A stretch of 37,454 nt of DNA, from positions 1 through 37,454 of the forward strand of contig JAAZDH010000115.1 of assembly GCA_012512865.1 (NCBI GenBank). The letters run 5' to 3'. The DNA is from Clostridiaceae bacterium (lineage in GTDB: Bacteria > Bacillota > Clostridia > Acetivibrionales > DUMC01). The position numbers and the translations under genes were made by a program. Shown here in pieces: positions 12,371-19,417 of the stretch. The stretch's first letter is position 1. Each line of letters begins with the position of its first letter. The notes under the pieces were generated by a model, which had not been told where the DNA came from, searched no databases, and was given only the letters and a program-made list of their open reading frames with translations.

Positions 12371-13795
12371 GTGATGGAGAATGTGATGAACAGGGGGATT
12401 AATACTGCTATGATGAGGTTGAGCTTGGTAATTGCAGACAAAGATAAAGCATACGTTGAAAGCCTTACGGGGTTTTTAACGGATAAATATCCGCAAAAAT
12501 TTAGAGTCAGCTTTTTTACAGATAAAAATCATCTTGCAGATTTTCTTATGAAAAGCGGTGAAAAAGTGGAGGTGCTCCTAATTTCCCCCGAACTATACGA
12601 TGAGTTGAAATCCTGTTGTCATGCATTCTATGCCAATTACAAAAAAATCAATGTGAATTGTCATGGGATTAACGGCAATCATCAAGAATTTAATACAAAT
12701 TGCCGCGAATTTAACGGCAATTACCATGGACCCGGTGCAAGCCACCATGAATTCAATACCGAAGAGTACAAGGAAAAAGTTCCTGTTATCATACTGCTGG
12801 TTGGCAATGATGTTCCCCGCGAGTCCTATGCCTTTAATACCATTTTCAAGTACCAGCATGGAGATAAATTAGTGAGTGATATTATCGGCATATACGAAAG
12901 CAAGTATGAGAATTCAGGGCTGTCTTTAAAACATGCGGGGAAATGCGAAGAATACAGTGAGAAAAAAGGACAAGGGGATGTGAATAAAACATGGCTGGTT
13001 TCAGTCTATTCACCTGCCGGGGGTGCAGGAAAGACCACGATTGCAGTGAATTCATGTATTCAATGCGCACGGGAAGGGATGAAGGCATTGTACCTGAACC
13101 TTGAGAGTATTAGCTCGACACCATGTTTTTTTGAATGCGATTTAAACAATGAACCCAGTAATAATTTCTCAACCATTATACTGGCGGCAAAAGAAAAGAA
13201 TAAGAACCTGTATGCCAAAATCGAGGGCATGAAACTTGTTGACGCGGTGCATAATATCCACTATTTGCTCCCGCCTGACAGCTCACTGGAGGTGGAGGAA
13301 ATGCTGCCGGACGAAATCAAGTACTTGCTTCGAGAAATTACATTGACGGGGTATTATGACGTAGTTTTTGCGGACCTGGACAGTTCCCTGGCCGTACGAA
13401 ACCTGGCCGTAATGGAAGAGAGCGACAATATAATATTGGTCCATACCCCTGGAATTGTATCAAGACAGAAAATACTGGGTTTTTACAAGGAGCTTGGAAT
13501 TTATCGCCGGCTAAAGGGAGTGAATTTGCAAGAGAAACTGGTTTTGGTAGTGAACAGGTACGATGAGAGCATCCCGGAAAAAATCAAGGATGATATTGAT
13601 GTGATATGTGCAACCATGGGAATAGAGCAATATTTTAAAATCCCGGTTGGCAACCAGGCTGCAGGATACACGGGGGACTATCTTAGGCTGGGTTTGCATG
13701 GCAGGAGCAGGACGGGGGAGCAGGATGGGCTAACCAGGGAAATACGCAAGCTCGTGGACAAGTATATAAAGGCAGGAAGTGCAACCGTAATGTAA
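12371..13795 (+). CDS. tadZ: TadZ/CpaE-like ParA/MinD-family ATPase with N-terminal pseudo-receiver domain
   Basis: - The N-terminus (MRLSLVIADKDKAYVESL...VEVLLISPEL) is receiver-like, but the phospho-acceptor position is Ser.
- The C-terminal half has a deviant Walker A, SPAGGAGKTTIAV, and a MinD/ParA-like fold.
- It sits immediately upstream of CpaF.
- The start is uncertain: GTG 12371, ATG 12386 or ATG 12410. Confidence 0.75.
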   Translation: MMENVMNRGINTAMMRLSLVIADKDKAYVESLTGFLTDKYPQKFRVSFFTDKNHLADFLMKSGEKVEVLLISPELYDELKSCCHAFYANYKKINVNCHGINGNHQEFNTNCREFNGNYHGPGASHHEFNTEEYKEKVPVIILLVGNDVPRESYAFNTIFKYQHGDKLVSDIIGIYESKYENSGLSLKHAGKCEEYSEKKGQGDVNKTWLVSVYSPAGGAGKTTIAVNSCIQCAREGMKALYLNLESISSTPCFFECDLNNEPSNNFSTIILAAKEKNKNLYAKIEGMKLVDAVHNIHYLLPPDSSLEVEEMLPDEIKYLLREITLTGYYDVVFADLDSSLAVRNLAVMEESDNIILVHTPGIVSRQKILGFYKELGIYRRLKGVNLQEKLVLVVNRYDESIPEKIKDDIDVICATMGIEQYFKIPVGNQAAGYTGDYLRLGLHGRSRTGEQDGLTREIRKLVDKYIKAGSATVM

Positions 13796-13839: not shown

Positions 13840-15081
13840 GTGGCAGTGATTACGCGTAATATTGATAATATTGTAGAAGATATAAGGGAAAGTGTTAACG
13901 ATAAGGTGGATGCCGGGAAGGCCATATCCGATGAGGAGATAAAAGAATTAATAACCACAGAGGTTTTTAAAAAGTCACGGGATTCTTATATCAGCATGAA
14001 AGAAAAACAGGAAATAATCAGGGTGATTTTTAATTCCATGAGAGGTTTGGGGATTTTACAGCCTCTTATCGATGACCACACCATAACCGAAATAATGGTA
14101 AACGGCCCCGGGGATATTTTTATCGAGCGGGACGGGTGCATATACAAGCAAGATATAAAGTTTGAAAGCGAGGAAAAGTTGGAAGACATAATCCAATCAA
14201 TAGTTTCAAGGGCCAACAGGACGGTGAATGAAGCATCGCCCATCGTGGATGCCAGGCTCAAGGATGGCTCGCGGGTGAATGTTGTTTTAAAACCTATAGC
14301 GCTAAACGGGCCGGTCATGACGATACGAAAGTTCCCGGATGAGCCCGTTACAATGGATAAGCTGGTGGAACTGGGTTCCATAACCCGTGAAGCGGCTGAT
14401 TTTTTAAGGAAGCTCGTGAGGGCGAAATACAACATTTTTATATGTGGAGGTGCAGGCTCGGGGAAAACCACGTTTTTAAACGCCTTGTCAAATTTTATAC
14501 CGGGGGATGAAAGAATCATAACCATTGAGGATTCTGCCGAGCTCAGGATAACAGGCGTAAAAAACCTTGTCAGGCTGGAGACGAGAAACGAGAACCTGGA
14601 AGGCAAGGGAAGGATAAGCATGCGTGACCTTATAAGGACAAGCTTGAGAATGAGGCCTGAAAGAATAATCGTCGGGGAGGTAAGGGGTGAAGAAGCCCTG
14701 GACATGCTTCAGGCAATGAATACAGGCCATGACGGGTCATTATCAACGGGCCACGGGAATTCTCCCAAGGATATGCTAAGCAGGCTCGAGACCATGGTGC
14801 TGAGTGCGGCGCCATTGCCGCTCCAGGCAATACGCCAGCAAATAGCTTCCGCGATTGAAATAATAGTGCACCTGTCAAGGATGAGGGACAAATCAAGGAA
14901 AACCTTGGAAATAACCGAGGTCTGCGGTATCGAGGATGGCCAGGTGGTATTGAATCCCCTGTTTATTTTCGAGGATGAAGGCGATACAAAAGAAGGCCTG
15001 GTAAAAGGCTCCCTGAGGAGAACGGGCAATGAAATGAGAAGAAAAGCCAAGTTCAAAATGGCAGGGATGGCAGCGGGATGA
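13840..15081 (+). CDS. tadA: CpaF/TadA family type II/IV secretion ATPase
   Basis: Walker A is GGAGSGKTTFLNAL. IITIEDSAEL and RMRPERIIVGEVRGEEALDMLQAMNTGHDGSLSTGHGNS are the diagnostic T2SSE/CpaF boxes. The start is GTG 13840 or GTG 13846, after GAGGGGG. Confidence 0.92.
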   Translation: MAVITRNIDNIVEDIRESVNDKVDAGKAISDEEIKELITTEVFKKSRDSYISMKEKQEIIRVIFNSMRGLGILQPLIDDHTITEIMVNGPGDIFIERDGCIYKQDIKFESEEKLEDIIQSIVSRANRTVNEASPIVDARLKDGSRVNVVLKPIALNGPVMTIRKFPDEPVTMDKLVELGSITREAADFLRKLVRAKYNIFICGGAGSGKTTFLNALSNFIPGDERIITIEDSAELRITGVKNLVRLETRNENLEGKGRISMRDLIRTSLRMRPERIIVGEVRGEEALDMLQAMNTGHDGSLSTGHGNSPKDMLSRLETMVLSAAPLPLQAIRQQIASAIEIIVHLSRMRDKSRKTLEITEVCGIEDGQVVLNPLFIFEDEGDTKEGLVKGSLRRTGNEMRRKAKFKMAGMAAG

Positions 15082-15335
15082 AAGCCGTACTGAAAGGAGG
15101 GTATGAATTAAAGCCAAGGCCGGTTGTATAAAAGGCAGTGCAAAAGTCAGCAAAAAGCCAGTATAGAAGGTGATATGAAAGGCAACATGGAGGTATGAAA
15201 GACGGCATGAAAGGGGGTATGAAAGAGGATGTGAAAGGAGGTGTGCAAGACAGCATGAAAGGGGGTATGGAAGGTGGTATGAAAGACAGCATGAAAGGTG
15301 GTATGGGAAGCAGTATGAAAGGCGGTATGAAAAAC
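15078..15335. repeat. purine-rich degenerate 12-nt tandem array (ATGAAAGGNGGT-like) filling the tadA-tadB spacer
   Basis: Eleven phase-exact 12-nt units span 15195-15326. Out-of-phase copies lie at 15078-15101 and 15175-15194. Read in frame, the array gives (M-K-G-G)n. Confidence 0.85.
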
Positions 15336-16078
15336 ATGGACTATAATACATACGTCATGCCCGTGAGAGAAAAACTGTTCAACATTATTAAAATAGCACC
15401 GTTGATTTACCTTCTTGGATTTTTGTTTTACAAGAATCACCTATTGAGTACCGTGCTTTGCATGGGTGCCTTGTTTTATCCCCGTTTGAAAGTAAAGGCA
15501 ATAATAAGGAAAAGGAAGGAAGAGCTTAACTTGCAGTTTAAGGACATGCTTTATTCCCTTAAATCTTCCCTGTGGGCCGGAAAGCCTATCGAGCTTGCCT
15601 TCGGGGAAGTAACAAAAGACCTTTGTATCCTTTATCCCGACCCTTCAGCTCCAATTATACAGGAGAGCTCCCTTATAGTAAAAAAGCTTGAAATGAATAA
15701 CACGGTGGAATCGGCGTTTTCGAATTTTGCCGAAAGGTCCGGGGTTGACGACATTAAAGATTTTGCAGAAGTGCTTAAAATTTGCAAGAGAACGGGGGGG
15801 GAAACCTGGTTGAAGTTGTAAAGAGAACCTCTTCCATTATTAGCGACAGGATTGAAATGGAACAAGATATTAACACGATGCTTGCCCAGAGGAACCTGGA
15901 GAGGAGAGTCCTGAATGTGGCGCCTGTCATCGTCCTTGCTCTTTTGTCAATTTCCGCTGCAGATTACATGGCCCCGGTGTATAACACCGCTGCCGGGATG
16001 ATGGTTATGACAGTGGCAGCGTTATTGCTTGTTGGAGCATATTATTTATCAAAAAAGATAATGGACATTAAAATATGA
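15336..16078 (+). pseudogene. tadB: TadB-like type II secretion system F-family membrane protein, interrupted by a frameshift in a G8 run
   Basis: - ORFs 15195-15821 and 15782-16078 overlap at GGGGGGGG (15794-15801).
- Joining them gives ...LKICKRTGG(G)NLVEVVKRTSSIISDRIEMEQDI..., the conserved T2SSF core.
- The frame is restored by G9 or G6.
- The probable true start is ATG 15336 (MDYNTYVMP...), downstream of the repeat array. Confidence 0.7.
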
Positions 16079-16297
16079 TGCAGAAAAACGCGGTGTTTGT
16101 CCCTGGAAACCTTTGATGAGGCAGCTTTACGGGTAATAAAGATTTAGCAATAGCAACATGGAATAAGCAACATTGGAGTGAGCATATAAAAATATGCAAA
16201 TAAAGTTTAAAAATATACAAATTAAGTTTAAGAAGCAAAACATACAAGTAAACCATACAAAAAAGACGAAATTAAATGAAACGGGGATGCGGTTGGG

Positions 16298-17209
16298 ATG
16301 CTGGTATTGTTTTTTGTCACGCTGCTTGCAGTAAGTATATTTCTTCTTCTTTCGTCCGGGAAGTATGATGAACTTGTAAAATGCGTGGATGAAAAGCAGA
16401 ACAAGTTAATAAGAATGCTTTTGCCTGTCGGGTTTTACATCATGGACATGATTGGATATAAGTATACCACCCGTTATGACAAGCTGTGCCTTGCAAAACT
16501 GACAGAAATCCACGGGGCAAAACGTGCGAGGCTCTACTTGAAAATCCATTGGGCTGGTAAAATTGCGGTTTTAATACTGGGGATTCTTACGGTTTCATTA
16601 ACAGGTATGGGGATGGAGATGGGACCCAACCGTGTTGCAAGCGGAGGGGAAGGGGGAAAAGGAAGCGGTGATATAGCATTTATTATATTTGGAGTTTTAT
16701 TAATTGCAAGCATGGCTTTCTTACATGACAAGGAACTGGAAAAAAGGCTAAAGAAAAGACGCCTTTCAATAAGCATAGATTTCCCGGGATTTTTAAACAA
16801 GATGACTCTCCTTGTTAATGCCGGCCTTACGGTAAGAAAAGCGTGGGAAAAAATAGCACAGGAAAGCCCCAGCGATTCAGATTTTTACAAGGAGGTAAAC
16901 GCCGTGATTGGTGAAATAAATGCGGGAAAACCTGAACTGAAGGCATATGAAGACTTTGCAAGAAGATGCAGGACGGCGGAAGTGGCAAGGTTCGTTACAA
17001 TTCTCCTTCAGAACATCAGGAAAGGCAACGAGGAAATGGTGTCAATTCTGCGGGTGCTTTCAAACGAAAGCTGGGATACGCGGAAAAATATTGCCAGGAA
17101 ACTGGGCGAGGAAGCTTCCACGAAAATGATAGTACCTTTAATGCTTATGTTCATTGCAATATTAATTATTGTTGCAGCACCTGCCATAATGGCAATTTCG
17201 GGACTGTAG
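16298..17209 (+). CDS. tadC: TadC-like type II secretion system F-family membrane protein
   Basis: An N-terminal TM helix is followed by a cytoplasmic T2SSF-type domain (FLNKMTLLVNAGLTVRKAWEKIAQES ... ARRCRTAEVARFVTILLQNIRKGN) and C-terminal TM helices. The position after tadB is typical. Confidence 0.75.
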   Translation: MLVLFFVTLLAVSIFLLLSSGKYDELVKCVDEKQNKLIRMLLPVGFYIMDMIGYKYTTRYDKLCLAKLTEIHGAKRARLYLKIHWAGKIAVLILGILTVSLTGMGMEMGPNRVASGGEGGKGSGDIAFIIFGVLLIASMAFLHDKELEKRLKKRRLSISIDFPGFLNKMTLLVNAGLTVRKAWEKIAQESPSDSDFYKEVNAVIGEINAGKPELKAYEDFARRCRTAEVARFVTILLQNIRKGNEEMVSILRVLSNESWDTRKNIARKLGEEASTKMIVPLMLMFIAILIIVAAPAIMAISGL

Positions 17210-17713: not shown

Positions 17714-19417
17714 ATGGCTACGTTGGCAATGCCGAGTACCTTGGAAAGTACGGCAAGCTTTAGTTATGAGAGGGATGACTATGCAAGCTACTTGGTTGTC
17801 AAGGTTGAAGATGTAAGCAAAATAATCAATTACCAGGCCGACATGATCCTGAATAATAAAATACCGGGCTTGCTGCCTTTTGATGTAAGGAGAAAAAACA
17901 ACGAGGTATATTTCTATTACAATATAACTTCAAAATTTGCACTTTCGCAGTTTTTAAACAGGGTGAGAATAAAAAAGGAGCAGCTTATAGATATTATGCT
18001 GCAAATTACCAGGGCTATGCTTTCAGGCATGAACTTCCTTTTATACAACAAGTGCTTTATTTTCCATGAAAACTACATGTTCGTAAATCCTGCAACCTGC
18101 GAAGTCTACCTTGTATATTTGCCGATACAGGTTGATGCCGATGTGAACAAGGCATTAAGGGATTTTATTATCAACATGGTGATATATTCTGCCGACATCT
18201 CGGAAGATGATGGCACGGAAAATTACATATGCAAAATCCTAAATTACGTGAAGTGTGAAACCTTTAATGTTGCTGATTTTAACAGGTTGCTGGTGAGATT
18301 GGAAAATGAAGAGGCAAAAGGAACAACGGCGGAAAAAAACCAGGGGAAGGGTAAACATGCGGGCACCGGTGAAGAATACCATGCGATGAATGATAATGGG
18401 AATGTAGCTAAAAATTTGGCATACAGCGGTAGTGATGCTAGGAATAGGTGCAGCAAAAAGGGAAAAAGGCATGGTATTGCAAAGGGTGATTTTAAGACTA
18501 ATTTCCAGTCCATGATGCGAAAAAATTGCATTGCATATGCAATTTTGGCGGTTTTGCAGGTTATATTGGTTTTGCTCATCCTCTCATGCGGCAACTTTCT
18601 AAGGTGCCTGGGAGGAGATATAAGAACGTCATACGTTGCTGCTGGCCTAATTGTTGTTGCGGTGGAAGTACTTGCTTTTAAGAACTTACTTTGGAAGCTT
18701 AAAGCAGGGGGTAAGAATGAATGTCGGGGGGCGGGGGCGGATGTGTACACGGGTAAGGGTGTATGTAGAAGTTTGACCGGAGTTGGGATTGGGAGTATGG
18801 CTGGGGATCCAGGCACCTGTAGGAGTGTTGACATGAATGCAAGTACGGATGAGAACTTGGCATGGAATGCCGGCGGTAATATAAGTGAGGGTATGGAAGA
18901 GAAATATGGCAGCTTTGTTGAAGATTTGTACGATTTAAACAATACAAGACCGGATGGCCTGGAAAATGAAAATTACAGCATTCAACCCACGGAAAGAAGG
19001 AACTGTGAACATGAAAGCAAGGGAGGATATTCAGCATGTACAGATGTTCAAGGGGGGCAATGGGGGATTGATGCCGGATTCGGAGATAACACTGTTTTCC
19101 TGGCAGTTGAAAGGAACAAAAAACCATTTCTTAGGCAGGAAGGCGATGGGTTCGTTGAAGAGACATTAATCAACAAGGAGGATTTCTTGATAGGAAGGCT
19201 TGGCGGCCAAGTCGATTATGTAGTTAAAAACAAGGCCGTAGGTAAAATACATGCACAGGTTATAAGCCGTGGGGGCAAGTATTATATTAAAGACTTAAAT
19301 TCCAAGAACGGGACGTATATAAACCATACCAGGATTGACAGCAATATTGAGTACGAGATAAAGGACGGGGACAGGATTACGTTTGCCAATAGCGAGCATA
19401 TTTTCATATTGAAATAG
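17714..19417 (+). CDS. FHA domain-containing two-TM membrane protein with DUF6382-like N-terminal domain
   Basis: The C-terminal FHA domain reads FLIGRLGGQVDYVV...HAQVISRGGKYYIKDLNSKNGTYINHTRI...DGDRITFAN. Two hydrophobic helices lie near aa 272-294 and 306-327. The N-terminal roughly 190 aa resemble the domain found on Firmicute FHA proteins next to Tad loci. Confidence 0.8.
   Translation: MATLAMPSTLESTASFSYERDDYASYLVVKVEDVSKIINYQADMILNNKIPGLLPFDVRRKNNEVYFYYNITSKFALSQFLNRVRIKKEQLIDIMLQITRAMLSGMNFLLYNKCFIFHENYMFVNPATCEVYLVYLPIQVDADVNKALRDFIINMVIYSADISEDDGTENYICKILNYVKCETFNVADFNRLLVRLENEEAKGTTAEKNQGKGKHAGTGEEYHAMNDNGNVAKNLAYSGSDARNRCSKKGKRHGIAKGDFKTNFQSMMRKNCIAYAILAVLQVILVLLILSCGNFLRCLGGDIRTSYVAAGLIVVAVEVLAFKNLLWKLKAGGKNECRGAGADVYTGKGVCRSLTGVGIGSMAGDPGTCRSVDMNASTDENLAWNAGGNISEGMEEKYGSFVEDLYDLNNTRPDGLENENYSIQPTERRNCEHESKGGYSACTDVQGGQWGIDAGFGDNTVFLAVERNKKPFLRQEGDGFVEETLINKEDFLIGRLGGQVDYVVKNKAVGKIHAQVISRGGKYYIKDLNSKNGTYINHTRIDSNIEYEIKDGDRITFANSEHIFILK

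Follow-up and report, generated by a model that had tools for sequence, protein, structure and literature searches.

A 12-nt tandem repeat between tadA and tadB of a clostridial Tad-pilus operon is probably an in-frame coding minisatellite that mimics ribosome-binding sites and start codons

Translational coupling junctions of the type ATGA or TAATG and ribosome standby sites are known translation features, and methionine-rich "Mets" motifs belong to copper-handling proteins. In-frame intragenic tandem repeats (coding minisatellites or VNTRs) of bacterial genes have been surveyed, for example, in M. tuberculosis (PMC12817950) and N. meningitidis (PMC5084427). Our literature search turned up no TadB described as having tetrapeptide repeats at its N-terminus. 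Here, we describe an array of 12-nt units between tadA and tadB of a Clostridiaceae bacterium that looks, at first sight, like a series of start codons and Shine-Dalgarno (SD) sequences. A sequence-only reading had offered three explanations, a ribosome standby or re-initiation platform, a variable-length N-terminal extension of TadB, or slippage debris from an ancestral ATGA junction. The explanation we favor, with a probability of roughly 0.6, is that a 12-nt minisatellite expanded in the N-terminal tail of TadB, that its 3' part is translated and disordered, and that its 5' part decayed and thereby disconnected the ancestral start.

The window, that is the whole stretch of 37,454 nucleotides that was analyzed, comes from a fragmented metagenome-assembled genome (381 contigs, 89% completeness) with relatives among the Clostridia, for example Acetivibrio and Herbivorax. 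A Pfam scan of the window revealed a Tad-pilus operon on the plus strand in the order tadZ-tadA-tadB-tadC, with tadB in its place between tadA and tadC. The features are as follows:

12371-13795, plus strand: TadZ-like ATPase (Pfam: ARD plus ParA-type ATPase)
13840-15081, plus strand: tadA/cpaF secretion ATPase (Pfam T2SSE, E = 2e-61), whose stop overlaps the ATG at 15078 as ATGA
15078-15131, plus strand: putative relic ORF of 17 codons in the TadB frame, opened by the ATGA at 15078-15081 and ended by the TAA at 15129-15131
15078-15194, plus strand: about ten decayed 12-nt units, most likely a non-coding spacer now (wrap-around alignment, in-frame stops)
15195-15335, plus strand: 11.75 indel-free 12-nt units that would encode a (M/V)-K-G/D-G/S tetrapeptide tail of TadB of 47 aa (TRF, frame, self-identity)
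15336-15821, plus strand: first part of the TadB core with the DYNTY motif, the transmembrane hairpin and the GspF-like cytoplasmic domain, up to a premature stop
15782-16078, plus strand: second part of the TadB core in a shifted frame, matching residues 197-293 of the conspecific protein P0084
15794-15801, plus strand: run of eight G (G8) that frameshifts tadB, also present in the conspecific contig L060
16298-17209, plus strand: TadC (T2SSF protein; Pfam)
17714-19417, plus strand: FHA/DUF6382 membrane protein (Pfam)

The tadA product matched the NCBIfam model of the TadA-family ATPase with E = 1.3e-92 and 310.6 bits, a score below the model cut-off of 373 bits, and no NCBIfam family was assigned to TadB or TadC. 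The AT-rich spacer between tadB and tadC (16079-16297) is likewise long, at 219 nt, and at about 16189-16230 a sequence of about 21 nt is repeated directly and almost perfectly (AAAATATGCAAATAAAGTTTA / AAAATATACAAATTAAGTTTA).

The statement of the sequence-only reading that the tadA-tadB spacer consists almost entirely of array is fair: with lenient TRF settings and wrap-around alignment, the complete stretch 15073-15332 comes out as 21.9 copies of period 12, at 57% matches and 6% indels. Its 3' part is far more regular. Eleven units stand in perfect phase at 15195, 15207 and so on up to 15315, followed by a 9-nt unit, ATGAAAAAC, at 15327 and by the ATG at 15336. The first codon is ATG in nine of the eleven units and GTG in the other two (15231 and 15243), and here positions, TRF (period 12, 15192-15332, 11.8 copies) and self-identity at lag 12 bear out what had been read by eye. 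The lag-12 value is 0.67 as compared to 0.32 +/- 0.04 in shuffles (shuffle maximum 0.44). Individual units agree with the consensus, ATGAAAGGCGGT, at 7-12 of 12 positions. Self-identity at lags 24 and 36 is slightly higher than at lag 12 (0.72 and 0.73, respectively), which argues for duplication in blocks of two or three units. We infer that the array is translated and that it originated by slippage or unequal recombination.

The array is in the same frame as the TadB core, as had been claimed, and 15195-15335 is free of stops, indels and frameshifts. The open frame was considered as evidence for coding and rejected, since half of the simulated neutral arrays of the same divergence also stay stop-free (P = 0.5). 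Changes between units fall on codon positions 1, 2 and 3 in numbers of 9, 6 and 9, with no excess at the third position. The array has a purine content of 77% A+G and its RNA is no more structured than shuffles (MFE z = +0.78). Neither promoter-like nor terminator-like sites were detected in a scan of the array region, and no Rfam family matched it at E <= 1. A 19-nt motif that spans two units was found, with up to two mismatches, at five positions of this genome inside the array, whereas two further matches with two mismatches, on other contigs, are unrelated. On the minus strand, three ORFs of 94-152 aa cross the array (14893-15351, 15053-15337 and 15147-15440). None has a Pfam match; these frames are open because the complement of the repeat unit is devoid of stops, and they are likely spurious.

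Upstream of position 15195 the picture changes. The 117 nt from 15078 to 15194 carry at least six indels in the wrap-around alignment, with at least six units affected, and the TadB frame is broken by TAA at 15129 and TGA at 15171. The periodicity is still visible (lag-12 identity 0.41 vs 0.29 in shuffles). In contrast, the 141-nt array has no indel at all; the probability of finding every indel in the upstream part is 0.009, a value calculated post hoc, and the 3' units could simply be younger. The ATGA at 15078-15081 indeed overlaps the stop of tadA and opens an ORF of only 17 codons. Its product begins MKAVLKGGYELK and resembles the first residues of TadB from the same genus, MGVALRGKLYGGNY. 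In that same-genus genome (G001) the distance from tadA to the core is 56 nt, and a TAATG overlap with tadA provides the start of tadB, which reads MGVALRGKLYGGNYNKMQN ahead of the core. This likeness points to the 17-codon ORF as the stranded, putative ancestral start of tadB, which would once have been coupled to tadA and is now interrupted by the TAA. The idea of slippage debris from an ancestral ATGA junction fits here, with decayed 5' units and an ORF homologous to the TadB start of the same genus. Within the ORF, CTGAAAGGAGGGTATGAA at 15090 is nearly identical to a unit junction, and it is tempting to speculate that this ancestral LKGGY segment may have been the seed unit of the repeat, which is plausible. 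The same region (15090-15111) has a strong SD-like sequence, GAAAGGAGGG, followed by ATG AAT TAA; this two-codon mini-ORF probably arose by chance from the repeat seed.

The events could then be ordered as follows. A 12-nt minisatellite would have grown within the 5' end of tadB, in the N-terminal tail that varies naturally and precedes DYNxY and the first transmembrane hairpin. The 3' 11.75 units (15195-15335) stayed in frame and are most likely translated, giving TadB a disordered, cytoplasmic (Met-Lys-Gly-Gly)n tail of 47 residues. The roughly ten 5' units (15078-15194) would have decayed by indels and the two stops, leaving the tadA-coupled ATGA start stranded. With this start lost, initiation would have to occur at one or several ATG/GTG codons within the array, or at 15327 or 15336. 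The resemblance to start codons and SD sequences results from the codons themselves, since ATG-AAA-GGN-GGT spell the repeat.

Inspection of the SD-like elements revealed that their geometry is not that of usual ribosome-binding sites. The sequence-only reading had ascribed an AAAGGRGG core to most units, which is an overstatement; AAAGGRGG is present in three and AAAGGNGG in five of the eleven. The core was also said to lie 2-3 nt from the next unit; in fact, it directly adjoins the next ATG after GGT (0 nt) and is 12 nt away from the next-but-one start. At ATG 15195, for example, GGAGGT is directly adjacent (0 nt). The strongest matches to the anti-SD, GAAAGGAGGT (-16.5 kcal/mol) and GAAAGGGGGT (-15.6 kcal/mol), as computed against a canonical 16S 3' end, are found 12 nt upstream of 15231, 15255 and 15279. 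By the same measure, the other genes of the window have gaps of 6-11 nt between SD and start. The only conventional geometry in the region is GAAAGGCGGT with 9 nt to ATG 15336, and this is also the only start with a distance in the range of about 5-10 nt that a translation platform should have. Where gene calls begin at 15195, this start was assigned by an algorithm and not by experiment. Computation does not fix the start or starts of TadB, and a ladder of starts is possible.

The same array is present in other assemblies of the species. An independent metagenome contig of 2445 nt (L060) is 99.84% identical over 14218-16662 and differs by four SNPs, one of which is within the array (15243 G/A, Val/Met). 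The proteins P0080 and P0084 (293 aa), from two further assemblies, also have these eleven units. Thus, the number is eleven in all four conspecific assemblies (window, L060, P0080 and P0084), and the comparison of unit number among strains that had been suggested gave no variation. Of the proposed variable-length N-terminal extension, the N-terminal extension gains support, as the in-frame 3' units resemble a translated tail, but the variable length does not hold within the species. In scans of genomes and metagenome contigs, the conspecific L060 was the sole match to the array. In the family-wide search of five genomes the array was found in no other species; the same-genus species lacks it, and so do the family's other four species genomes. 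The order-wide search of 149 species genomes with this query gave no match in the other 148, a set to which the sister species described below does not belong.

The tadB gene of the window is itself not in one piece. The G8 run divides it, in the window and in L060 alike, into ORFs of 208 and 98 aa, so that neither has an intact frame. P0080 and P0084 are intact and read through this site as KRTGGNLVEV; therefore, the G run needs two bases fewer in total. The split is a matter of phase variation or else marks tadB as a pseudogene in this population. Homologs of the protein are named TadB and many have PF00482 (T2SSF). The split ORFs of the window have no Pfam match, and the intact P0084 scored 24.1 bits with PF00482, just under the cut-off of 25.2. 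The predicted model of the core superimposed on the cytoplasmic domains of EpsF, OutF and PilC with target-normalized TM-scores of 0.71-0.79 and a probability of 1.00. AlphaFold2, run with an alignment of 32 sequences, predicts residues 1-46 to be disordered (pLDDT 34-50) ahead of a confident GspF-like core (pLDDT 83-94). The positive-inside pattern after the transmembrane hairpin would place the tail in the cytoplasm.

What is conserved in the repeat can be judged from a sister species. In its protein (P0085), whose core is 89% identical, the corresponding position is taken by 15 tetrapeptide units, for example IESN, IKNN, MKSN and VKNR. Position 1 of the unit is hydrophobic (M/I/L/V) in all 15, 15 of the 17 K/E residues of the tail are at position 2, and positions 3 and 4 have small polar residues; the lag-4 class autocorrelation of the tail is 0.83. 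Met opens only six of the 15 units and Gly-Gly occurs in none; conservation thus apparently does not concern the ATG and SD-like features. Judged from the protein sequence, the sister species seems to have kept the amino-acid pattern and to have lost ATG and GGNGG for the most part. P0004, which belongs to the same 90% cluster as P0085, has one unit fewer. With the tail of P0085 (residues 1-90) as protein query, matches were confined to its own cluster. A third repeat, differently ordered and of the NKxG type (NKAG, NKVG, NKIG), is present in P0009.

Tails as such are common. An in-frame start ahead of DYNxY is present in 16 of the 18 relatives whose locus has both tadA and tadB, with tails of 5-52 aa (0-52 aa over all 18), which makes a poorly conserved, translated N-terminal tail the norm of this TadB clade. 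In most of these relatives tadB starts no more than 40 nt from the tadA stop, in some with a clear SD. The nearest tail-less homologs, P0005 and P0007 (249 aa), begin with M-x-N-I-DYNTY, which aligns with MKN-MDYNTY at 15327 of the window; the tail is thus an add-on. In some TadB homologs of the order (P0018, P0028, P0039, P0059, P0061, P0070, P0073 and P0079), DYxxY is preceded by an additional transmembrane helix at the N-terminus and by a linker rich in K/R. The structure of this region is therefore plastic throughout the clade.

These data have to be weighed against other explanations. TadB could start only at 15327 or 15336; an untranslated leader of neutral slippage debris, without any role, would then make up the entire 254-nt spacer. 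Indeed, ATG 15336 has the best SD geometry of the region, the nearest homologs without a tail begin at the equivalent of 15327, the 5' half is plainly decaying, and the open frame is what chance alone would give. However, the strongest anti-SD matches sit in the array, 12 nt before in-frame ATG or GTG codons, N-terminal tails are the norm among the relatives, the array of the sister species keeps an amino-acid and not a nucleotide pattern, and 141 nt have remained without indels. We consider an untranslated leader unlikely, though worth keeping in mind. That the array is an artefact of assembly or sequencing is hardly credible. The genome is fragmented and repeats are prone to misassembly, but 141 nt is shorter than a read pair, and assemblies from other sources, L060 among them, give the same units.

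The array could also be a device of translation, as had been proposed. A module of SD and start codon would have been amplified and would capture ribosomes that leave tadA and initiate at several in-frame starts, which would give robust expression and/or a ladder of TadB isoforms. The loss of the ancestral coupled start, which calls for a replacement, speaks for this, as do the thirteen in-frame ATG/GTG codons, the strong SD-like core 12 nt upstream in alternate units and the purine-rich, unstructured region. It is difficult to reconcile with the sister species, in which the repeat persists even though most units lack ATG and all lack GGNGG; AAAGGRGG is present in only three of the eleven units, distances of 0 or 12 nt fall outside the usual optimum, and the array is confined to this species among the genomes of the family and, with this query, of the order. 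A standby or re-initiation platform is thus not supported and is, in our view, rather improbable. The same doubt applies to the variant in which a module of ribosome-binding site and start replaced the lost tadA-coupled start and now produces an N-terminal isoform ladder or, by redundancy of starts, buffers further slippage. The expanded minisatellite with a translated 3' part accounts best for the findings.

The chief value of this case is cautionary, since a Met-Lys-Gly-Gly repeat, which is necessarily written ATG-AAA-GGN-GGT, closely mimics an array of ribosome-binding sites and start codons. It also indicates that the N-terminal tail of Firmicute TadB is tolerant and fast-evolving, with 12-base repeats expanded in at least two or three related lineages, and it provides an example of how a start inside a repeat would have taken over from a translationally coupled one that was lost. 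Should several starts be in use, the locus would be a simple natural system for studying the choice of start sites.

How does the array compare with known systems? By gene order, names of homologs and the EpsF/OutF/PilC fold, the protein that carries it resembles the TadB/CpaG and GspF/PilC platform proteins (PF00482, T2SSF); it differs in the tetrapeptide repeat, for which the literature search gave no TadB precedent, and in the PF00482 score of its intact conspecific form, just under the cut-off. Like a translational coupling junction, the locus has an ATGA on the tadA stop, but the coupled ORF ends after 17 codons, 63 nt before the first usable tadB start. The unstructured and purine-rich leader is reminiscent of ribosome standby sites, from which the array differs in its SD-to-start spacing. 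As in Mets motifs, Met recurs at every fourth residue, flanked by Gly and Ser. However, most of these residues are Ile, Leu or Val in the sister species; a Met-specific role of the tail, such as metal binding, was therefore rejected as unlikely. The gene context is not copper-related. With coding minisatellites and VNTRs the array shares a unit length divisible by three, an in-frame place within a gene, higher-order blocks of 24-36 nt that point to slippage or unequal recombination, and the difference of one unit between two sister-species assemblies (P0004 vs P0085). It differs from them in the constant copy number among the four conspecific assemblies, in its location at the extreme N-terminus of a platform protein of the cytoplasmic membrane and not in a surface protein, and in the potential start codon in every unit. 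Taken together, the array is most likely an ordinary in-frame coding repeat or low-complexity extension and not a new device of translation.
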